Shown: positions 4,210 through 35,462 of the stretch, piece by piece
Position numbering within the stretch: the stretch's first letter is position 1
Layout: every line of letters begins with the position of its first letter
Assembly: GCA_964057225.1 (NCBI GenBank)
Contig: OZ059896.1
Span: 10,850,001-10,914,000, forward strand
Reading direction: 5' to 3'
DNA from: Auanema rhodensis
Taxonomy: Eukaryota > Animalia > Nematoda
DNA: 64,000 bases
Notes under the pieces: model-generated
The model's input: only the letters and a program-made list of their open reading frames with translations
What the model was told of the DNA's origin: nothing
Databases searched by the model: none
Made by a program: the position numbers and the translations under genes

Positions 4210-5203
4210 ATGGGTTACAGTACCGTTGTCTCCGCCGCTTCCTTAGTCATCGTTTTCGGTGCCTTCATTGGCATTGGACGTATTGTCTATGACATCAACA
4301 GCATGTATGATGATGTAATGGATCGTATGCACGATTTCAAGGTATTTCAAAGTAAATCAATATTACTTTTCAACTTTTTGAATAATTTAGAATGTTGCTG
4401 ATGTAGCATGGAGAGAGGTTGTTATCAAGTCTCACCCATCTGACCGCGCTGGATTCAATGCCCTTATTGGTTAGATTTAGAGATAGTTTGATCTTTATAG
4501 TTGTTTTGTTTGTAGGAAGAAACAAGAGATCTAACAGCCAATGTAACTGCGGAGCTCAATCCAGAGGATGCCCAGCTGGACCACCAGGACCAGTTGGAGA
4601 AGCTGGACTTCCAGGAAAAGATGGACTTGATGGACTTCCAGGAGCTGACGGAATCTCTGGAAACCAAATCTTCTACGGAGATGAGGTAAGCATATTTTTG
4701 TTTATATCTCTTTTCATTATTTCTTAATTCAGAACAAGAAGGCTTGCATCGTTTGCCCAGCTGGACCACCAGGACCACCAGGAGAGCAAGGACCAGCTGG
4801 AGAGGCAGGAGAAGATGGACGTGCTGGACTCCATGGACCAGCCGGACAACCAGGACCAGACGGAGAAACTGGAGCTCCAGGAAACGACGGAAGACCAGGA
4901 CACCCAGGACGCCCAGGAGCCCCAGGAGAGAACGGACATCCAGGAGTTCAATACACTGAAGGAAAGCCAGGACACCCAGGACGTCCAGGACCACGCGGAC
5001 CTGCTGGACCTGCTGGAAACAACGGAAAGGACGGACAAGACGGACAGCCAGGACAGCAAGGACCAGCTGGAAAGGACGGAGAAAATGGTCTTCCCGGACC
5101 AGACGGACAACCTGCCACTCCAGGAACCGACGGAGAAGTTGGACCAGATGCTGGATACTGTCCATGCCCAGCTCGTACCGAAGCCATCCGCTTCATGGAC
5201 TAA
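4210..5203 (+). CDS. Cuticular collagen (col family)
   Basis: N-terminal hydrophobic Col_cuticle_N segment, RNKR cleavage site, [11 protein letters not shown], Gly-X-Y repeats, C-terminal YCPCPAR; 3 short introns; TAA 5201-5203. Confidence 0.95.
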
Positions 5204-6198
5204 ATACAACTTTTTCGCATTCAATAAAGATTTTTTCAACATCAAACATTGTACGTAATTGAAATTTAATACAACCGATCACACATTAGAAATTATGAAT
5301 GAATGAAAATAATTTTTCACGAAAATGTTAGAAAACGTGGAAATTTTTCATTTTAACTAGAATATGTTATAATCAGTCTTTTCTATTTAACAAAACAAAT
5401 TATGTCAAATCAATTAACAAATAAAAGTAAAAATACAATAGATGAAGGATTAAAATGTATACCAAGGTTAAGACAATTTACTATATTATTCTTCAAATAT
5501 TAATAATAATAATATTTTCAGATTTATAATATTTCCAAAATCATCATATGATAAAACAAAAAGTGTTAAAATAAAATTATTAAATAGTGAAACAAACTTC
5601 GTAGCTTATCTTATAAAAAGCAAAGAAGGTCTGTTTAAAATATCACAAAATTGTGGAATTTTGCAAGCAACTGAAGAGAAAGAACTTGAAGTAAACTTCG
5701 TTCTTAAACTTCTATATTTTAATTTTTTAAGTTACATCTTACTCCACATGTCGATTGGCCTTTAAAACGTAGTAAGTATCTTAAAAAGCCGTTGAAGTTG
5801 TGTATACTTAGTCTGAGCTTATCAAAAACTTTAGATTACGAGGTAATCAATGCTTATTTACTTTTATAAATATAGTAATTTAATAATTTTAAGAATGAAT
5901 TGGAATATGCATCAAATGTATTTCAAACAATGCACAAAGATTTTCAACAATATACAAAAATTAAAATCATTTTGCTGTAGTCATATTTATAATTGGATTA
6001 ATATTTGAAAATATAATTTAATAGAATCAATCAATTAACACAAAATAAATTTATTATTATTTAATATAATTGTGTAATATGAAAATAATTATTTTTAATA
6101 AATTTTATATAGTAATAGTAGTACCATATATTATTTTATGCTATTAACTCATAAACAAATATAAAACTATAACAAATTTTCAGTAATGAAGAAATGTT

Positions 6199-6684
6199 TT
6201 AATAATTCTTAATTTTCCTTGTACCAAAAAAGAAATGTCCAATTGATAATCCAATACATAATGATGTGCATATCCAAAATGAGAAAGTCATAAAGCATAA
6301 CATGAGCATGTAACCCAAAATTATTTGAATAACATATAAGCATGATTCAAACAAATGATGAGTATCTAGTAAATAATCATGCCAACTGAAATAGTTTTTT
6401 ATTATTTTTAAATTCATTATTTCATTCAATAAATACTTTCTCATTGCATCTCCTTTGGTGTCAACATGCCAACGTATCCATCGTAATGCTTCAAGTACAA
6501 TAGCCATAGCAGCTACGACAAAACATGACCAAACCATATCTAGAATTATTTTTTATTTTAATATTATACATTTATAGGATTAAATCGTACTTCCTGGATC
6601 AGTTATCCACCATTGTTCAACCCAGATTACATCATTAACTTGTGTGTGATACCACATCCACATTTTTGGATGGCTTGGTTTCAT
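6199..6684 (-). CDS. CTR/SLC31 copper transporter, paralog C
   Basis: MWMWYH N-terminal motif, TM2 MLCFM (MxxxM), TM3 GLSIG (GxxxG). Confidence 0.88.
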
Positions 6685-7238
6685 GATTAATCTAATTATC
6701 AATAAAACTAATTATTAAGCAATAAATAAAAAATAAATAAAACAAATTGAAATCAATATATGATTGAGAAAAATTTGTAACAATTCAATTATAATAAATA
6801 TATTTGTTTAAATAAATATATATGAACAATCTATTTTGAATGGGAACAATTGCAAAAGGTGATGTCTGTGATCGAGTGATGGGAATAAAGATAAGAATTT
6901 GAAGTTTACTTGCTGATAAGTAAATTCTCAAGATAAGAAGAGTTTTTAGATAACATAATAATAATAATAATAATAATAGTAAGAGTAATTAAGATATTAC
7001 TAAGTGATCAGTGATTATTTGAATTTGTAAAGTAATGAGTCAATTCAATGTCTTCTTATAGTCTTTTATTGCATTTTTAGAATGCTTATTCAATCAAATG
7101 TTTCAAATTTTAATAGATTTTAATATTTATTTATAATTAGTTCAATATATAATCAGTATAATATTTATTATTATTATCATATATTATTCATATATTCAAT
7201 TATAAAAAATGTTTATTTTCATAATAAAATTAAATAGA

Positions 7239-7851
7239 TTATCCACAACAATCAGTCATTTCAACATTTTGTGCTATTGGCATCTTCGTTCCCGTTAAGT
7301 AATAGCCAAGTACATGTCCTTAAAAAAATAATTGAAGAATAATTTGTTGAACAAATACAACAAAGTACCTGCAATCATACTGGCAACAATTGGAACATTA
7401 TACGTCATTGAGATCATCATCAAAGAATAAGATCCATACATCTCAAAGAAATACAATATTGGAGATAGTAAATTATATGGTTTAGAAAGATATTTCAAAC
7501 TAAATCTGCAAAACATGTATATATGATTATATCGTATAATTTTTTTAATTTTGTATTACGGTAGTTGTGGTTTGGGTCTACTAAGCTCTGAAGGCATGCA
7601 ACATGAATTATCCATTTCGTCCTCATCATCTTCAACAAAATATTTCTTGAGAAGAATGGTATGAGCAAAGCGTAATAATTCAAAAGCTAATGCTATAGCT
7701 CCCACAGCGATACAAGTAAACACATAACCTTAATAAATACGTTTTTTTGTCTCAGCTTTCATATAGTTATACCAGTTACATTTGCTGGAAGCCATTCCCT
7801 AAATAGTACCGGCTCTCCGATACGGAAGTGGAAATACATTTTCATCATCAT
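7239..7851 (-). CDS. CTR/SLC31 copper transporter, paralog B
   Basis: MMMKMYFHFR..VLFREW N-terminus, YSLMMISMTYN (MxxxM), GHVLG, C-terminal DCCG*. Confidence 0.88.
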
Positions 7852-8023
7852 GATTAAATTCGATCTAAATTAGAGTCAGACAGAAATTAAACAGATAATT
7901 CTGAAAAATTCAACGATAAGCAAACGATTAAACATCTTAGATGAATCATGAACAACTTAAGTTTTTAAAACTTATTTTGATAATAAAAATTTTATAAATT
8001 ATGCATATAGTGTTAACTTAATG

Positions 8024-8960
8024 CTAAAATCTTGAGAGAACTTTAGAGCTTATTCGATACTCAGTTGTTGAGTTAAATCTTAAAGTATTTGAGGTTTCAT
8101 AATCATTATGTTCTTGAACAGCTTTTCGATTTCCAAACAGGTAATGACCCACTGATAACCCACAGACCACAGCAATGCAGAGCCAAATAGAGAAGGTCAT
8201 AAAGACAAGCATGACAAAATAAGAAGAAATTGTCTGGAAATAATACTTCTTAAGGAATTATTTCTTAATAGTTTACGATAAGATATTATTCTTTGTATTA
8301 TTGGTTCATGATTGTTTCATTGTTCAAGAAAGATATTCTCACATAATTTCTAGATAATTGCATTCTTGCAAATTCTTATCAGTTTTGAATGAAATGTAAT
8401 TTGAAAAAATATTTCCTTACTTGGATAGCAAACAAAAAAGTTTGTCCAACATGGTAAACATGGAAGATTTGCTTGAAATATCTGAAAGTATTCGTTTTTA
8501 ACATTCAATTTTCGATTATTTCCATACCCATAATCATAAAACTTAGATTTTTGATGAGCATGTACATCCATTCTCCATCTAAAATACTTAACAGCTTCCA
8601 AGAAAATACATAAAGCAGCAATAATGAAGCATGAATATACCATTTCTAAAGAAGTTATATAAAAATTCATTTATAAAAACTATTTATAATAATTATAAAT
8701 AATAATATAATATATAATTAATTGATTAATTATATAAAAGAAATCTTACGTCCAGAACTTGTAGTATTCCAAAATCCAAACAAAATGGTATTATTAGGAT
8801 TGGTATGGAACCACATATACATGAAATGATTATCCATCATCATATGATGACTCATATTTCCCATAGGCATAGGCATTCCAGAAGGCATAGGCATTCCAGA
8901 AGGCATAGGCATTGGCATTCCAGAAGGCATAGGCATTGGCTTTTCAGTAGACATCATCAT
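8024..8960 (-). CDS. CTR/SLC31 copper transporter, paralog A, with expanded Met-rich N-terminus
   Basis: (MPMPSG)n..HHMMM..MYMWFH..ILFGFW ectodomain, SYFVMLVFMTFS (MxxxM), GLSVG. Confidence 0.9.
8863..8940 (-). repeat. Coding tandem repeat (18-24 nt units) encoding MPMPSG
   Basis: Repeated ggcataggcatt(ggcatt)ccagaa units. Confidence 0.9.
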
Positions 8961-9139
8961 CTTGATCAAAATTACCTAAAAAAAACATAAAATTTTATAA
9001 ATTAATTTAAATAAAATGTTTTTATTAGTTCTATGTTGATTATTGTTACTTTCATACACAATTCAATATTTAAAGAATACAATAAGAATACAATAAAAAA
9101 AAGAAAGAGGGCAGAGACGGAGACAAAAAAAGAGAAAGA

Positions 9140-9722
9140 GAGATTTCAATTTTTAAATTTTTTGTAAAGTTTTTACTATTTATTATGAAAATAAACAATT
9201 GTTATAAGAGAACAAATGGAAATCAAACAGTAGGATGTCATTCAACTGACATTATCAGTCATATAAGTCAGAAAGTCAAAGCTTCGTTTTCTACTCTGTT
9301 GCTCTCATAATCATTCATACTCCAGTTCGGCCCTCATAATGATAACATTATAGTAGAGTAATCGTTCAATAAGGGCATTTATTGTCTTTTTCCATTCAAA
9401 ACATCTTAACAATTTGATTATACAATTATTACTGAATACTAAATATTATATAGTTATAAGTACCATTCTAAAAATATGAATTGATTCCAAATATATGCTT
9501 TTCTAATCAGTTATAATCAATACAAATACCTAATAATAATTTGTAGCTTTCTGGATGTTATACATAAATCATTTTTTTAATCAAAAAATAACTGGCAATA
9601 ATAATATGTATTTTGCCGTTCTAGCGCACCTTTTCGCCCATCCCCAATTTTCGCAGTTTTAAGCCGTTTTAAGGCTTTTTTTCATTAATTTTGTGTCCTA
9701 ACTCTTCGAAAATGTGTCATTT
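9140..9722 (+). repeat. Left arm of a 583-bp inverted repeat (partner 12702-13284)
   Basis: Position p pairs with 22424-p. No mismatch was seen in the stretches compared by eye. Pairing fails at 9139/13285 and 9723/12701. Confidence 0.95.
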
Positions 9723-9811
9723 TCAACAATTTTCAAAAATGAAAAAGAACCTGCCAAGTCTAACAAATATTTATCTTGAAAAACTTGTAAAATTATTAAA
9801 GATAAGAAACT

Positions 9812-11339
9812 TCAGAGGATCTTTATGAGAGACACTTTGCCCCCACAAGGAATTAAGGAAAGAGAAGTTGGAATTGTAACTTTAGACTCGATAGGATGAT
9901 TCGGAGCAATAATATTTATTCATAGGAAGAAAATAATACATTTACTGAAAAAATGCTGCTTGGCTCCATTTTTATTCTTTAATAAAACGTCCACTAAATT
10001 TTCTCCATATTACTCCAAATCTTTGCGCATATGGAAGTTTTGAAGGATTAAAGTAACTTTTCCGGTTTTTGACTCCTATAAATATATAAATTATAAACTA
10101 TTATCTTTTGTTTTAATAATAATCTCGTTAATTTCGCTCGCAAGTTGGTCAAAATTAAGATTGAACAACTTTTCCTTGATGTACATTGCCATCTCATGCT
10201 CAACTTTTAATTTCTTCTCAAAAATTTCGAGAAATCTAAAAATAATAATTCAATAAGAATAGTTCAAACAAATGACTTTTTATTTTACCTGAAACACGCC
10301 AATAGAAAGGTCATTCTGACCCCATCCCTTCACATGAAACCTAAAAAACAAAAACAAATTGCATAAATCAGTAATTATATACAGTCCTGTGCGAAATAGT
10401 GGGGACACTCACTAGAAACCCTTATACCTTCTCAGACAAACTACAAAAATTCAGAAAAAATATATTTTGAGTGTTAAAAAATGATAATGAATTCAGAAAA
10501 AATCTTCAAAATTTTAAAAATCATGTTTAAAAGTATTTTCTGAGGTCTTGAATCTATGCCATAGGAAAAACTTGGTTATTGATCGAGCTCCGTGCTCAGA
10601 ATGATTTTAAAATATTTTTAATGAATTAACTTGTTTCTAATCTCAAATTTTGTTATATTAAGAAGGATTATTCAAAATAGTCAAAAAACACTAAATTTCC
10701 TTATAAATTTAGAAATCTCATTGAAATCAGTTTTCATTATATTAACATATATTTTGACTGAATATAAACTAAACGCAAAATTTTTGAAATAAAAAAAAAA
10801 TTTTTTTTGTAGTTTGAAGGGGAATTCTGGGCCTCTAACATAGGGGTGTCCCAACTATTTCGCACAGGACTGTATATCTTATTTGTATGCTATTCTCCAA
10901 CCGGAGTCCAGTTCTTTAGCCGTTTCAGGTTCGACTTTCTTGCGTATGAGCACAACTTTGAGAACCTGTTGTAATCCCAAGGATTCGTCAACGTTTCAGG
11001 AACAATCTTGACATTCTGTTGCCACTTCAAGTTTTTGAATATAATTCATCATGGCAAGCTTACAACCCTAGAAATATTTTAATAAAGATTACAAGTCTAA
11101 GCAAAAAGTGCTATACACTTTAGATTCATTAAATTACATTAAAAAATACATACTTGAAATGATTTCTCACACGTCTGGGCGGTATCATGTGCATCCAAGT
11201 ATCCAACTGCTCGCTCTTTTAGCAAATCGACCGTATAGATGAGCTTCGTATCGGAAATCTAGAATTATAGCCAGTTATTATGTAAATTACATGATTAATC
11301 TATTAAAAGCCTTTTTTTAATATAAATATGGCTTACCAT
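9812..11339 (-). pseudogene. Spliced cargo-like pseudogene inside the Maverick remnant (unknown family)
   Basis: tttcagaATG|gtaag first exon. Exons read ISDTKLIYTVDLLKERAVGYLDAHDTAQTCEKSFQ, LKWQQNVKIVPETLTNPWDYNRFSKLCSY, FLEIFEKKLKVEHEMAMYIKEKLFNLNFDQLASEINE and ESKTGKVTLILQNFHMRKDLE*YGENL. Frameshifts, a premature stop and damaged splice sites must be assumed. Confidence 0.55.
10382..10872. mobile_element. Tc1/mariner-type non-autonomous element (MITE), 491 bp
   Basis: 27-bp TIRs CAGTCCTGTGCGAAATAGT(G/T)GGGACAC with 1 mismatch, flanked by TA at 10380-10381 and 10873-10874; no coding capacity. Confidence 0.93.
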
Positions 11340-11460
11340 TCTGAAATGATAGATAGCTGGTGACAAGCGGCAATTGATGAACAACCGAAACATCATCCGT
11401 TTGAGGAAAAAAAACACTGAAATATGATAAATTAAATTTTTTTTGATAAATGATAAATTT

Positions 11461-11659
11461 GTAAAGTAATCATATAAAAATGTAATTTCTTATTTAATTC
11501 TAGTATGGGTTTGAATACTTCTATACGGTGATATTCTACGTTTTCTAAATTGCAGCGCTCTTCTAAATTCTTGAATTAGTGTTCTTTTCTATTCTTCAAG
11601 AATGATTGAACAATTTTATTCCTTTTCTAGGGATCATAGATTTCGATTGTGGAAGGCAT
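11461..11659 (-). pseudogene. Truncated, stop-interrupted Polinton-type ORF
   Basis: MPSTIEIYDP*KRNKIVQSFLKNRKEH*FKNLEER...EVFKPILE resembles the IxDPxKRxxIVxxFLKxR...FKPI N-terminus I recall from Polinton-associated proteins. Intronless, with two in-frame stops. Confidence 0.5.
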
Positions 11660-11705
11660 TTTTTTGAAAAAGTAATTTATTTATAAAAAAGTATTGTATT
11701 TATAA

Positions 11706-11861
11706 ATGGAAGAAATTACTGAAGCTTCGAAAGCTAAGGCAGTAAAGTTCCAAAATCTTTCTTTTGGAGCATCTGCAAGACATTCACCTAGTGAAGGATT
11801 CGAAGAAGATTCAAAGAAAATGAAAAGAGATGAAGTTCGTAGAAAAATTGCGATGATTTGA
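11706..11861 (+). CDS. Small intronless ORF (~51 aa) within the Maverick remnant
   Basis: TATTTATAAATG start context, then MEEITEASKAKAVKFQNLSFGASARHSPSEGFEEDSKKMKRDEVRRKIAMI*. Confidence 0.35.
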   Translation: MEEITEASKAKAVKFQNLSFGASARHSPSEGFEEDSKKMKRDEVRRKIAMI

Positions 11862-11974
11862 AGTGAATTGAGAACTCCACTTTTTTTATATAAAAGGAAG
11901 TTTTGATTCCTTCTAGAATTTGAAAAAGTAATATCTTTTTAGTTTCAAAAGAATTCATCTGACAATGTCGAGAG

Positions 11975-12701
11975 ATGAGCTGCTCCGTGAATTTAGAAAA
12001 AATAATAAAAAAGAAAAAATTACTAATGACTGATGCTCAAATGAAAAAGATGAAGGTGGATGAAATGAAGCAATTTATTAATAATCATTCTCAAGAAGTT
12101 AATCTTTTACCACCTCCAGATGAGATTTTTCTTATGGATCATTTGATTTTTACTGATCTAGAAGCTAAAGAGAATGCTAATTCAAGGATAACAAATTATA
12201 GAAGCAAGAACAGCAAAGATTTCCTAGAAAATCCTTTTGAAATGATCGAAGAGAAAGGTATTGAATTTTACATGGATCTTGTAAAAAAGAGATTGACTTC
12301 TTTTCTCAAGAAGAAGCAAAATACTGTTGTCAACGACATTTACAAAGTTACTAATGTTCGAATAATGCTTTACTTAGAATGTGAAACAAAGAAACCTGAT
12401 TCTACTAGTCCATCCAAGTTTCATGTTAATACAATATCTCAACTTCTACAATCAGGTGAAAGTAGGGAAGAATTTTATCGAGTAGCATGTCAAACTTCAA
12501 TGAATGATGTAGAAAATAGAGAACATCATGCTTCAGGATTAGTGATAACCAGATTTTTAAAGTAAACCATGTTTCAAACTAGAACTGATGCAATGATTGG
12601 AGCTTTTTTTTCAAATCCTAAGTTTGTTATTAGTAAAAGGTCTGTTTTAAATATCCAAAAAAAGATAACATGTGTTTCAAGTGGACCATTCTAGCTCATC
12701 T
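11975..12701 (+). pseudogene. N-terminal fragment of a Polinton/Maverick protein-primed DNA polymerase B
   Basis: 196-aa intronless ORF ending ENREHHASGLVITRFLK. It continues across frameshifts as PKFVISKRSVLNIQK/DNMCFKWTILAHLN, matching the GSGW...KK.I.NI.N.D..CF.W.ILA.L motif of Polinton pPolB N-termini. Truncated at the inverted repeat. Confidence 0.75.
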
Positions 12702-13284
12702 AAATGACACATTTTCGAAGAGTTAGGACACAAAATTAATGAAAAAAAGCCTTAAAACGGCTTAAAACTGCGAAAATTGGGGATGGGCGAAAAGGTGCGC
12801 TAGAACGGCAAAATACATATTATTATTGCCAGTTATTTTTTGATTAAAAAAATGATTTATGTATAACATCCAGAAAGCTACAAATTATTATTAGGTATTT
12901 GTATTGATTATAACTGATTAGAAAAGCATATATTTGGAATCAATTCATATTTTTAGAATGGTACTTATAACTATATAATATTTAGTATTCAGTAATAATT
13001 GTATAATCAAATTGTTAAGATGTTTTGAATGGAAAAAGACAATAAATGCCCTTATTGAACGATTACTCTACTATAATGTTATCATTATGAGGGCCGAACT
13101 GGAGTATGAATGATTATGAGAGCAACAGAGTAGAAAACGAAGCTTTGACTTTCTGACTTATATGACTGATAATGTCAGTTGAATGACATCCTACTGTTTG
13201 ATTTCCATTTGTTCTCTTATAACAATTGTTTATTTTCATAATAAATAGTAAAAACTTTACAAAAAATTTAAAAATTGAAATCTC
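12702..13284 (-). repeat. Right arm of the 583-bp inverted repeat (inverted copy of 9140-9722)
   Basis: Made of a copy of the element's left end (12702-12824), an inverted TSD attgcc (12825-12830) and inverted host flank (12831-13284). Confidence 0.95.
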
Positions 13285-13690
13285 ACAGCAAAATACATAT
13301 TATGGGCAATCATGTACAAACTGAAAATCTACAATACTTATAGTATTTTATAGGTTTAGCAAGATTGATTAAATTGACCTTTGTTCAGGACGAAAAAAAT
13401 TATAAAATATTTATTTTTTTCTCAAATTTTTTCATGAAAAATTGCTTTTTGTTTGTAAAATAATTGTTTTAGTATCCAGTTTGAACTTTGATATGTCTAC
13501 GCATATTTTTTAAAAACGATGCTGTGTTATAATCAGTCTCGTTCTTATCAAACTTGAATACTGCTCAGACCTGTTAAGTTAGAGTTAGCACGTATGAGTA
13601 TCTATATATACGAGAATCTTTTTTTGTATTTCATATTTTTTTCAGGCATATTGATAAGTTTTTAAAAATTTAATTATTTTAAGGCTGCTT

Positions 13691-15879
13691 ATGAATTTGT
13701 ACAGTTTATTTCTTATATCTTTTCTTATATTATGTTGTACTGCAACTTCATCACTATCAACTAAACAAAAGAAGAAAATTATTATTTTTGCTCCCGATAT
13801 AGCTAACAGCCAAGTAAGTTTTTTTATTCTCTATTATCTAGAAAACTTGTCGTATTCTATTAGATTGTATACAATGCTAGAGTAGCCGAAATTTTGGCTA
13901 AAGCTGGTCATGATGTAACATTAACCCTGTTTAACCCATATGTTGAACAAGATACAACTGTTAAAATTGATCCACTAGTTACAGGTTATTAATTTTTTCT
14001 TATTATTTTATGATTTTAATATTAATTATTTTAGTTAAACGTATTAATGCTTCAACTGGAATACACAAATCAGATATGGATAAACTACATTCAGAATTTA
14101 TATATCAAGTAAAAATGAATTATATTTATAATAATTATTTATTTATTCACTTTAGGATGTGCCTATTTGGGATAGCAGAATGATAGGTCAAACTCGTCTT
14201 TTCACGGATCTTCTTGCTGGCATGTGTAAAGGTTTCTTTTAATACTAAAAGAATAAGTTTTAATTAAGTAATAATCACAGAAATTATAACAAATAATGAA
14301 TTTTATGAATGGATTGTAAAAGAAAAATTTGATATCGCTATTCTTTATATGTACCATGCATGTCCAGTTGGTATCGTTCATAGAGCTAAGATTCCAAGTT
14401 GGATTTGGCTTAATAGGTATATTTTTCATTTTCTATAGAAATATTGAATAGCTAAATCGGTTTTAGTGGAATGTTAATGGACCCAATAGCTGATATGATT
14501 GGTGTACCTACAATCTCATCCTATGTTCCTCGTTAGTTGCTATTATAATTATTTTGTTTTCTATTCATTACATCTACAATTAATTTCATATATTTCTTCA
14601 ATTATTGTAGCTATGATGATGGCAGCTCATGATAGAATGAATTTCATAGAGAGAACCAAGAGTTATCTAGGTCATACTCTACAAGCATTTCTATTCCGCC
14701 CGTTTGTTCAAAGGAATATTATCGTATTAATATTTTCTGTATTTCAGACTTGTCACAGATAAAGAAACTGCCCTTTGGAGAGAACATATTGATCCTAATT
14801 TCCCTGATATTTATAATTTAGCCCGTCAATGTCCACTTATAATGGTGAACACAAATGATTTGTATCAGTTGCCACGTCCAACACTTGCAAAAGTCATCAA
14901 TATTGGTGGAATTGGAATGCAACAGAAAGATGCAAAGCCATTACCTGCTGTTGGATTAAGGACACATAAGCATTTCACTTAAATATGTTTTACAGGATCT
15001 TGATGCATTGTTCAAGAAAAGTGAAGGGGTTATTCTTATGTCGTTTGGCTCTGTCGCACCAGCTGAGCACATGCCTGATACTTGGAAAGCATCTTTACTT
15101 GAGACATTTTCCCGTTTTCCTAAACATCAGTTTTTATTGAGATATACTAAGGATGACATGAATGGTAAGATCAGTTCTTAATAGGGAATGTTTTGAAATT
15201 TATTCTTTTAAGATAGATTACCACCAAACGTAAAACTTGCCAAATGGTTACCCCAAAGAGATATTCTTCAACATCCAAAAACAAAAGTCTTCATAACTCA
15301 CTGTGGATATAATAGTTTACAGGTTAGCTAATCATTTATTTTTTTAATCAGAAAGCATTAATTCCAGGAAACTATCACAGCTGGCAAGCCAATGCTAGCT
15401 ATTCCACTTTTTGGTGATCAACCAAAAAATTCAATGATTGCAACTAAACACGGATTTGCCAGAGTTCTTTTAAAGACAGATGTTGCAAATCCTGATGCAG
15501 TGGAAGCTGCATTGAAGGAATTATTGAATAATCCAAAGTATGCTCCAAAGATTCGAAAAACGGTAGAATAATATTTGCATATTAATGTAGGTATTCCAAG
15601 AAAGCTGAGCGTATGAAGGAAATGGTTAGTCAGCAGCCCATTGCACCCGAACAGTTGCTAATTCGATGGACCGAATTTGCAGCCACTTTCAAAACTTTAG
15701 AGAACATGGAACCTGCAGGACAACATCTTAACATCATTCAATACTATTCTATTGATATAGCAGCCTTTTTATTTACAATTGTATTTCTTATATTATTTAC
15801 AACATGGAAAATTCTCAAATGTGTTTTCACTATCTGTTTCTGCTCAAAAAAGAAAAACCTGAAATCAAAGAAGGAATAA
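13691..15879 (+). CDS. UDP-glucuronosyltransferase (ugt family)
   Basis: Signal peptide, [57 protein letters not shown] signature, C-terminal TM and KSKKE* tail. Confidence 0.95.
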
Positions 15880-16507
15880 TTTTTTTTTTTTCATGATTTT
15901 TTTGTTACACTTTTGTTTTGAATTGTATTAATCAATGATTATAAAACATTCGACGGTTAGCTTTGAATATTGTAGTCTCATATTTCATGAATCACTTAAT
16001 CATATAAAAAACTGACCATTACTTAATAATCATATTTAAAAAAAAAAAACCAAGCATTTCCAACCGAAATTTTAAAAGACGATGTAAGTCTCGTTTCATT
16101 ACGCTCTGCATTTACATAATATGATATTACTTAGTAGAAATAAATAATAAGGTCACAACAGTGTGGAAAAAACGACCTAAAGATTATTGTGCTTCATATT
16201 TAATTAGTTCAAAGGTGACAAGAGAGATCTGTCTATTTATATCTACTTTAGCTGATCATATAAACTAAATAAGGTCTAACTAAGTTAGAATCGAAGAAGC
16301 CAAAAATATTCACTACAATATAAAATAGAAAGAAATCAGCCTTTTCCTCCCAAAACGATTAAAAACCGGGGGAATGAAAACAAATCACTTAATGATCATT
16401 CGTTGCGATTCGAGAGGGAAATAGATAAATCAGATAAAACATAGAGACATAAGTCAAATTAGAACATGGTATTTTTAAAAAGCCAAAATAAAAAAATATA
16501 TATGTGT

Positions 16508-30324: not shown

Positions 30325-31139
30325 TTATCATAACTTAACTGCTAATTAATTGATCCATAAAGTTCACATTTATGCTCCCGGAAATAATCACACTGATTGC
30401 AAAATACGAAAAACATAATGATTATTTTGGTACAGATTTGGAAATTATGCTGTAATAAATAATAAAATAATACCAACAAACCATCTAAACTTCAATTAAT
30501 AAAAAATTAGCTTGATATTTCTGATAATGTAAAAAAAAAACACATAAAAGTAAACTATAATGGAAAAGGAACTATGTCTTGATTAAAAAATTAGGAAACC
30601 CTGTCAGATTTACCAAAAAGCGCACTAACCAGTAAGCAGAGGTAGAACCAGTTTAATAACATCTCTTAATTCTGTTGCAATGCGAATGGTAGCGATTTCA
30701 AAACTTTATGAACGACAAGATACATTCAGCAAGAAAACTGCTCATTTCTTACTACCTATTGATTTCCACTATTGGAAACTATCCTAATAAAGCTTTCATG
30801 ATTTACCATCGTTCTTTTATTTTATATTTATCGAATAGTTTCTTTAGCAGGGCAGACAGACTTAGTAGGAATTACATCAACGTCTCCTCAGACTTGGCTG
30901 CTTACCATTGGTCAGATCGTGAACAAATATACAATTGCAAGCTGTCAAATGGCTTCTTTCTATTTATTCGATGACCAAAAATATCGCTGTTTATAACTAA
31001 TCAAAATTTTTAATTTTGAAAAAGTGTTACAAAAAGGTCTAAACGTAGACTGCAACTGAACAAAAAGATACTAGAAAGCACAGCAAGAGTGGATCAGTTC
31101 ATACAATTTGGAATGGAAGTGCTTCATGTCGGTCATTGT

Positions 31140-31326
31140 TCATCATTACAACATGATTCTATGAAAATACTTGTATATAAAAATTTAAAAATATTCCGGT
31201 TGTGCAAAACTCTGTACGGCTAATGCTCATCATTACAACATGATTCATCATTGAATGCTCATCATTGCAACATGATTCTATGAAAATTTAAAGATATTCT
31301 AGTTGTGCAAAACTCAGTACGGCTAA
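31140..31326. repeat. Local imperfect tandem duplication (2 long + 1 partial copy)
   Basis: tcatcatt(a/g)caacatgattc occurs 3 times; ttgtgcaaaactc(t/a)gtacggctaa occurs twice. Confidence 0.85.
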
Positions 31327-34489: not shown

Positions 34490-35462
34490 TTAGTCATTGA
34501 ATTTAATTTTCTTATTCTGCTGACCACCACCAAAGTCTCCACTTCTTTTGAAACCTGAAAGAAATACTTCGTATGTTAAAAAAACAATCATATACGTACC
34601 ACCACGGTCGCCTCCACGGAATCCGCCGCCTCTACCTCCACGGTCTCCACCACGGAATCCACCTCCACGGTCTCCACCACGGAATCCACCGCCTCGTCCG
34701 CCACGGTCACCAAATCCTCCACCACGTCCTCCTCCGAAACCTCCACCACGGCCTCCACCGAATCCTCCACCACCACGTCCGCCACGACCACCTCCGAAGC
34801 CACCACCGCGACCTCCTCTGTAAACAATTTTGACTAATCTCAACATATTTATTTCTCACCTATCTCCTCCTCTTCCTCTACCGCGGCCTCTGCTATTCTG
34901 GGCACCAGGAAGGAATCTACAAATAACATATGAATGTATGAATAATCAAAATCTAACGATATACCTATCTACAGGAAGAAGCTTGCCAGGGTCAATATAA
35001 AGTTTCTGTTCTTCTTTGAAAGACTGTGCTTTAACTCCATTTTGAAGAGTTACAGTGAATCCCTTTAATATTATGTATTTAAAATTAATCGGTGATAATA
35101 CTTACATTTTCCATGGGTCCTCCGAAAATCTCATCAATTTTTCCTATTTGCTCCTTATTTTCAAAATAAACAGGGGCATTGAAATATGGAATTTTTCCAG
35201 TTGTGTTAGTGCATACGATGTCCTGTTCGCAACAATGGGTAAAATGTCCTACTTCAATAACCTGGAATATTTATTTATATTTTTTCGTTTTCGAAGCTTC
35301 ACTACTTCTTCTGGTGGCCCAGCATCATATCCTCCACCTCTTCCTCCTCCTCTTCCGCCTCCACGACCTGAATACATATTTTCTAAAAGTTTAGGATAGA
35401 CTGATTATACCTCCACGATCACCGCCACGTCCGCGTCCACCACCACGACCTCTAAAAGACAT
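34490..35462 (-). CDS. garr-1: H/ACA snoRNP subunit GAR1
   Basis: RGG repeats at both ends; core [46 protein letters not shown]. Confidence 0.95.

Follow-up and report, generated by a model that had tools for sequence, protein, structure and literature searches.

An inverted copy of the left end and of 454 bp of host flank inside the right end of a decayed Maverick of Auanema rhodensis

Cargo genes of nematode Mavericks, also named Polintons, lie 2–5 kb inside the terminal repeat opposite the polymerase gene and contain introns, according to the passages of Widen et al. (bioRxiv 2022.07.12.499685) drawn upon here. In the same passages, the way in which Mavericks that move host genes between nematode species acquire their cargo is an open question, and those from the main text give no capture mechanism. 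For single-copy Pack-TIRs, which have terminal inverted repeats (TIRs), the passages used of PMC8277862 describe filling of gaps from nearby DNA without transposition as the rule, as was shown earlier for P elements. Among short human–chimpanzee template-switch events, those with the switch-point order 3-2-1-4 and the mirror case account for 31% (Loytynoja and Goldman 2017, PMC5453318, in part). Also, remnants of Polintons at the eri-6/7 locus of Caenorhabditis elegans have been associated with both inversions and duplications (Zhang et al. 2024, PMC11414722, in part). Here, we analyzed a stretch of 64,000 bp of Auanema rhodensis (assembly GCA_964057225.1, contig OZ059896.1, positions 10,850,001 to 10,914,000), hereafter called the window, in which a decayed and internally deleted Maverick has most of its right end replaced by an inverted copy of its left end together with 454 bp of flanking host DNA (Table 1).

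The largest inverted repeat in the window consists of the arms 9140–9722 and 12702–13284, which are complementary at 583 of 583 positions. The motif GGCAAT occurs at 9594–9599 and 13305–13310 and forms a 6-bp target-site duplication (TSD) around 9600–13304, as in Polintons/Mavericks, which have TSDs of 5–8 bp, typically 6 bp. A third, inverted GGCAAT is located at 12825–12830 inside the right arm. The sequence directly before the right TSD, 13285–13304, is identical to the left terminus 9600–9619 at 18 of 20 positions, the mismatches being the terminal base and position 18. When up to four mismatches were allowed, this stub was the sole match of the left-terminus 20-mer in the window besides both arms, and an 18/20 match directly followed by the 6-mer is expected there 3e-7 times by chance. 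Of the original right repeat, 20 bp are left; Polinton repeats range from 100 to 1500 bp. The initial annotation, made from the letters alone, had proposed the order host DNA, TSD, left end, polymerase fragment, inverted left end, 6-mer, inverted flank, stub and TSD, and had described the 583-bp repeat as perfect and the true termini as differing at 2 of 20 positions; sequence comparison confirmed all of this and supported the element bounds 9600–13304 with their 6-bp duplication. The flank copy, which had been given as 460 bp, is real but measures 454 bp without the 6-mer.

Eleven public sequencing runs were found, nine of which, from three studies, contain at least half of the words of 6000–15900; for X10 and X11 the shares were 0.10 and 0.07. 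Contigs of four runs (X1, X5, X8, and X9), which show presence only, were compared with 9723–14700, 32 of the matching pieces being listed, and bridging of a junction was defined by 31 letters on each side. The outer junction (13284/13285), for which a check by spanning sequences had been proposed, is present in contigs of all four runs, covering three studies. In X9, one contig (12938–13972) without any difference bridges it with 347 and 688 letters. In X1, X5, and X8, the arm contig stops at 13284 and the next contig starts at 13255 or 13256 and continues through the stub, the 6-mer, and the right flank without difference; this is a fork pattern, but the overlap on the arm side is only 29–30 letters and thereby just below the bridging threshold. 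Relative to the median of the near-identical single-copy contigs listed, the flank arm had depths of 1.9x, 1.8x, and 2.6x in X1, X5, and X8. The depth of the terminus was ten-fold or more, compared with about 2x for the 454-bp flank, so that by contig depth the prediction of a multicopy end (9600–9722) next to a flank confined to this locus held. In X8, no window-like contig was listed at about 12050–12570 and there was no coverage at 12877–12937; because contigs show presence only, these gaps were not taken as a deletion.

Loose contig ends (24 of 592 rows underlie the following counts) revealed the terminus of the family. In X1, X5, and X8, respectively, 9, 8, and 8 contigs diverge after 12824 with mixed letters (agreement 0.48–0.51). 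These are other family copies at other sites, which end at the terminus assigned in the initial annotation, and the family accordingly consists of dispersed copies with a common terminus, as is the case for Polintons/Mavericks. Another 9, 7, and 7 contigs of the same runs diverge before 12702 with alike letters (0.85–0.86), which resemble the continuation of the left end. Since family copies continue past 12702 with left-end-like letters, no natural boundary exists at position 123 of the repeat. Multicopy sequence of the family end extends to about position 287, where five X1 contigs diverge (at 9886).

The identification as a Maverick with a fragment of a protein-primed family B DNA polymerase (pPolB) was corroborated by tblastn, in which 14 of 123 proteins matched 12026–12702, with the best E value of 1e-30 for a C. 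briggsae protein. In 11 of the 14 matching proteins, the homology stops exactly at the inner junction (12702). P0005 is a protein of C. briggsae, and the proteins closest to it come from Caenorhabditis and Heterorhabditis and have 0.9–1.2 thousand residues. When 101 residues from the frame 11963–12562 were used for a profile search, five proteins were obtained, including one unrelated zinc-finger protein; the top representative match, P0003, was dropped as a repeat-rich zinc-finger protein. For the full-length relative P0012, the predicted model (predicted local distance difference test, pLDDT, score of 86) had phi29 DNA polymerase as best fold match (E 2e-18), by which the polymerase identity was settled: the 5′ fragment together with the fold of its relative corresponds to a pPolB. 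The endonuclease VII/HNH domain PF02945 was present in 7 of 11 relatives scanned, of which one is an unrelated zinc-finger protein and two others are not clear pPolBs; the corresponding part of the gene is deleted here. An insertion of this kind is a mark of the nematode type pPolB2 in the passages used of bioRxiv 2023.08.22.554363. From its position, the fragment probably comprises the terminal-protein domain and the first part of the vOTU domain, both of which are described for Polinton pPolBs (bioRxiv 2024.03.18.585575, in part).

With a stop codon, a frameshift, and about 2.7 kb missing, about the 5′ fifth of the polymerase gene is left. Neither Pfam nor word-indexed protein searches gave a match for the polymerase fragment itself, a sequence search of PDB by means of the pPolB profile yielded nothing beyond weak zinc-finger/HNH matches, and Atlas matches to MyTH4 at 0.81–0.82 were treated as noise. 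A search of viral contigs gave 0 loci, and two matches of a 19-base terminus pattern in metagenome contigs were regarded as chance because their flanks are unrelated. In 9600–11960, no open frame of more than 85 codons and no Pfam match were found. In the 3.7-kb element, no integrase or capsid gene nor any other core gene was seen, and an intact polymerase gene is absent as well. By its sequence, the element is classified as a deleted nematode Polinton/Maverick with a polymerase probably of the pPolB2 type, and the integrase, ATPase, protease, and capsid genes appear to be absent from this copy.

The duplication had been proposed to be younger than the insertion, and two observations agree with this. 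The arms differ at 0 of 583 positions and the termini at 2 of 20 (p=0.001), although the mismatch at position 18 is three bases from the junction and may be a repair scar. Also, at repeat positions 67 and 45 (12758 and 12780) both arms carry the letters of the window, while all depth counted in X1, X5, and X8, where the contig of the locus itself was not counted at these positions, represents another letter; X9 has the window letter at a single-copy depth of 12.2. These letters look private to this locus, and because they occur in both arms, the copy was made after the left end had decayed. Conversion between the arms could give the same picture.

Table 1. Features of the Maverick locus and its surroundings, with positions in the window and the evidence for each feature.
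Feature	Position	Strand	Evidence and remarks
Host Ctr copper-transporter gene	6199..8960	-	PF04145, E 4e-17; likely start codon 8960; transcribed away from the element
Host flank, single-locus, donor of the copy, upstream of the Ctr gene	9140..9593	.	Inverted-repeat comparison; about 2x depth with its copy in 3 of 4 runs
Left TSD, GGCAAT	9594..9599	+	Sequence match
Maverick left terminus, first 123 bp (copied part)	9600..9722	+	8–9 contigs per run (X1, X5, X8) part from the mirrored terminus into mixed flanks (agreement about 0.5)
Further multicopy left-end sequence	9723..9886	+	X1 depth 684 vs about 90; 5 X1 contigs diverge after 9886
Decayed near single-copy gene, candidate older cargo	10091..11396	-	Exon-like pieces 11396–11337, 11258–11154, 11067 to about 10882, 10340–10289, 10235–10091
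Nested high-copy 500-bp miniature element	10377..10877	.	32-bp inverted ends, TA context; X1 depth thousands vs about 90
pPolB fragment	12026..12702	+	tblastn with nematode proteins
Left terminus copied perfectly in inverted orientation; new inner right end	12702..12824	-	Arm comparison
Target-site 6-mer, inverted copy	12825..12830	-	Sequence match
454-bp flank, inverted copy	12831..13284	-	Arm comparison and contig depth
20-bp remnant of the original right terminus	13285..13304	-	18/20 to the left terminus; contigs without difference in 4 of 4 runs
Right TSD, GGCAAT	13305..13310	+	Sequence match
Host UDP-glucuronosyltransferase (UGT) gene	13691..15879	+	PF00201, E 2e-11; likely start codon 406 bp past the outer junction

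We consider it probable that a single template-switch repair event, by one or the other of two routes, generated this arrangement. A broken or stalled strand near the right end would have switched once to the left end about 3 kb away on the chromosome, the new strand would have been copied outward through the left terminus and the target site into the flank, and it would then have been joined back 20 bp from the right terminus. In their order, the switch points correspond to type 3-2-1-4. Because the target-site 6-mer and flank are part of the copy, it was the integrated element that served as template. The enzymes would presumably be those of host repair synthesis; nothing points to proteins of the element. 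In route (a), position 123 of the right repeat would already have been fused to the polymerase gene by an earlier deletion. A break located 20 bp from the end would then have invaded the left repeat by homology, and synthesis would have overrun, since no more than 20 imperfect bases were available for annealing on the other side of the break, followed by end joining. In route (b), a deletion of 2.7 kb or more and a switch with next to no homology would have taken place in one event, leaving a templated patch. Route (a) is slightly ahead, because it explains both the start of the donor inside the left repeat and the survival of the short terminal stub.

The initial annotation had the switch primed by the left TIR. 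The switch out and back is supported, whereas the priming does not follow from the inner junction with its overlap of at most about one base, and priming by the terminal repeat is possible. At this junction, a codon of the polymerase gene is joined directly to position 123 of the repeat, and since family copies run past position 123, priming by homology needs the earlier deletion. No strong hairpin was found at either junction. Alternative transposition was rejected, as it is the inner border of the 20-bp stub, not a terminus, that the new junction touches, and two independent insertions were rejected because the flank and the locus-private letters are common to both arms. What likely resulted is an element of 3.2 kb whose 123-bp ends are perfect, with the flank copy stranded outside.

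Several observations weigh against repair by template switching. In the sequence retained here, microhomology is absent at the outer junction and at most about one base at the inner one, compared with microhomology at a breakpoint in 68% of Pack-TIR cases (PMC8277862, in part). Route (a) requires that all 103 bp of the old right repeat were overwritten, and the chance of no difference after such an overwrite is 0.5% at 5% divergence and 29% at 1.2%. Among the 32 pieces listed, no contig crosses the inner junction (12701/12702). X9 has no fork at 13284 and a depth of 1.04x, where 1.3x would be expected with two arms; its outer-junction contig has a depth of 14.0 compared with 12.6–13.5 nearby, in a shallow run with single-copy contigs of 12.6–22.9, and X9 possibly represents an allele with one arm only. 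Furthermore, the arm contig breaks at 12938 (mirror position 9486) in X8 and X9, in X8 with five unmatched letters at about 2.6x depth. This break may reflect a variant common to both arms by conversion or be a sign of another allele; the arms may therefore vary or convert in other isolates, which weakens dating by their identity.

The initial annotation regarded the locus as a TIR-primed route to cargo, a claim that came out weak. No coding sequence is contained in the copied DNA, which is limited to one locus and lies outside the new perfect pair of 123-bp ends. This pair (9600–9722 and 12702–12824) has the family terminal base, encloses 9600–12824, and excludes the flank copy. If the element were moved by proteins of another element, the inner end would probably be preferred and the flank copy left behind. 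In mobile cargo, captured DNA is found at further sites with new target duplications; here, the flank arm has about 2x depth only. A candidate for older cargo is the decayed gene at 10091–11396, whose 3′ end points towards the left repeat. It has GT..AG introns of 78, 86, and 53 nt, its first three exon-like pieces join in phase, one piece has a stop codon, and the last two are out of phase. Four of the five pieces have GC contents of 0.40–0.46 in comparison to 0.17–0.22 for the introns, and 9889–11382, except for the nested element, is near single-copy by contig depth. The exon-like pieces had no Pfam match and the last piece no Atlas match. This gene may be older cargo.

A wider conjecture is that broken integrated Mavericks regularly rebuild their right end from the left one and sometimes capture flank, the locus preserving an allelic series, with one-arm and two-arm alleles in different isolates and conversion keeping the arms alike, together with an older captured intron-bearing gene. 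We regard this as quite unlikely; if true, it would be the first traceable route by which Mavericks gain nematode genes. What the locus does indicate is that neighbouring chromosomal DNA can enter the end of a Maverick through ordinary copying during repair, the two junctions and the target site being still readable. Since that event also created a better end within the captured sequence, the locus more likely shows the birth of small non-autonomous Mavericks with perfect ends than a gain of cargo.

Other histories would lead to a similar layout. The outer junction could stem from an inversion whose breaks lay at 9139/9140 and at 20 bp from the right end, and the duplication from a later crossover in the terminal repeats between a normal and an inverted chromosome. 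X9, in which the outer junction occurs without a fork at single-copy depth and the repeat letters of the locus have a depth of 12.2, speaks for this, as does the link of Polinton repeats to inversions at C. elegans eri-6/7 (PMC11414722, in part). However, three events are required, and the shallowness of X9, with its range of single-copy depths, and the loss of branches in contig assemblies reduce the weight of that run; we therefore judge an inversion followed by crossover unlikely. It is very unlikely that the locus represents functional cargo capture, in which the outer ends would still delimit the mobile unit, the flank copy would travel along, and end repair of this kind would be a principal origin of Maverick cargo. 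Between the original termini and the copies of the target site there is indeed host DNA, and the remnant of a single-copy, intron-bearing gene lies by the left repeat at the usual cargo site of nematodes (bioRxiv 2022.07.12.499685, in part). Yet the flank copy at about 2x has not spread, is non-coding, and is found at the polymerase end rather than in the 2–5 kb cargo region by the other repeat, and the perfect inner end leaves it out, while of the outer end 20 bp remain, with a terminal base that differs.

An artefact of assembly fold-back or an amplification chimera would fit the lack of a bridged inner junction among the listed pieces, all run data being contigs and one run possibly being the source of the window itself. 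The depth of about 2x in three runs from two studies and the outer junction in four runs from three studies speak against it, and a fold-back would not return to a terminus bearing a copy of the target site, which makes an artefact highly improbable. Least credible is that the 583-bp arms are true terminal repeats and the 26-bp match at the right end is due to chance. Perfect arms of 583 bp would fall within the range known for Polinton repeats (bioRxiv 2023.08.22.554363, in part), and inverted-repeat finders would report them as terminal repeats at this locus, of which annotators should be aware. But no duplication was found when the ends of the arms were checked for flanking repeats, the chance expectation for the 26-bp match is the 3e-7 given above, and family copies end at 12824 with mixed flanks, while 12831–13284 has only about 2x depth. 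The exclusion of these arms as terminal repeats, already put forward from the letters, is hence supported by the missing TSD, the depth of the flank arm, and the multicopy true end. The template-switch repair described above thus remains our preferred explanation.

The element is located between the Ctr and UGT genes, both of which are transcribed away from it. The genes of the host, its short introns, and the relatives of the polymerase point to a nematode. As a result of the duplication, the UGT gene is also faced by DNA from upstream of Ctr (the copy at 12831–13284), 406 bp ahead of the likely start codon. If the copy altered UGT expression, which is conjecture, this would be a small regulatory novelty; two GATA sites in the copied flank compared with 0.75 expected gave no signal. 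In the Ctr gene, 8862–8961 on the minus strand is a tandem repeat of 18–24 nt encoding the Met/Pro-rich N-terminus of the transporter. The nested element inside the Maverick is presumably Tc1/mariner-like. Elsewhere in the window, the frames 4685–5203 and 34490–34855 underlie the largest direct-repeat families; we take them to be Gly-X-Y collagen-like and RGG-rich frames of ordinary host genes. Short local direct repeats of 32–48 nt with a spacing of about 100 nt are found at 31137–31326.

In the open-access literature, bioRxiv supplements excluded, no description of a mirrored left end with flank in a Maverick was found, but the class of mechanism is already described for other terminal-repeat transposons. 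As far as the passages used of each source go, the following comparison can be drawn. The locus shares with nematode pPolB2 Polintons (bioRxiv 2023.08.22.554363) a pPolB with HNH-bearing full-length relatives, the 6-bp target duplication, and a multicopy terminus; unlike these elements of 13–25 kb, it has 3.7 kb and only about the 5′ fifth of the pPolB gene. Like eri-6/7 (PMC11414722), it combines remnants of the pPolB end of a Polinton and repeats with a rearranged host locus, but several insertions with ectopic recombination are proposed there, in contrast to one insertion with an inverted duplication including the target site here. With nematode Maverick cargo (bioRxiv 2022.07.12.499685), the gene at 10091–11396 agrees in position and orientation, its 3′ end facing the repeat opposite the polymerase, whereas the 454-bp copy is at the other end, non-coding, and unmoved. 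The switch order and the resulting perfect inverted repeat are those of the four-point template switch 3-2-1-4 (PMC5453318); different from those short-range events, the copied 583 bp came from a site at a distance of about 3 kb, which is the scale of fork-stalling or break-induced switches. By analogy, the event appears to work like the gap filling of single-copy Pack-TIRs (PMC8277862): nearby non-element DNA was copied into a break in an old terminal-repeat element after its insertion, and the filler is single copy with its parent close by on the same chromosome. Differences are that the filler sits in a Polinton (the text of PMC8277862 contains "Maverick" 0 times), that this filler is inverted and takes in the end and the target site of the element itself, and that the gap, in Pack-TIRs small and internal with a median of 4.6% of the element, spans 2.7 kb or more and extends up to 20 bp from the end. 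The locus is thus a real and well-preserved relative of these gap fillings, and probably not a route for gaining cargo genes.

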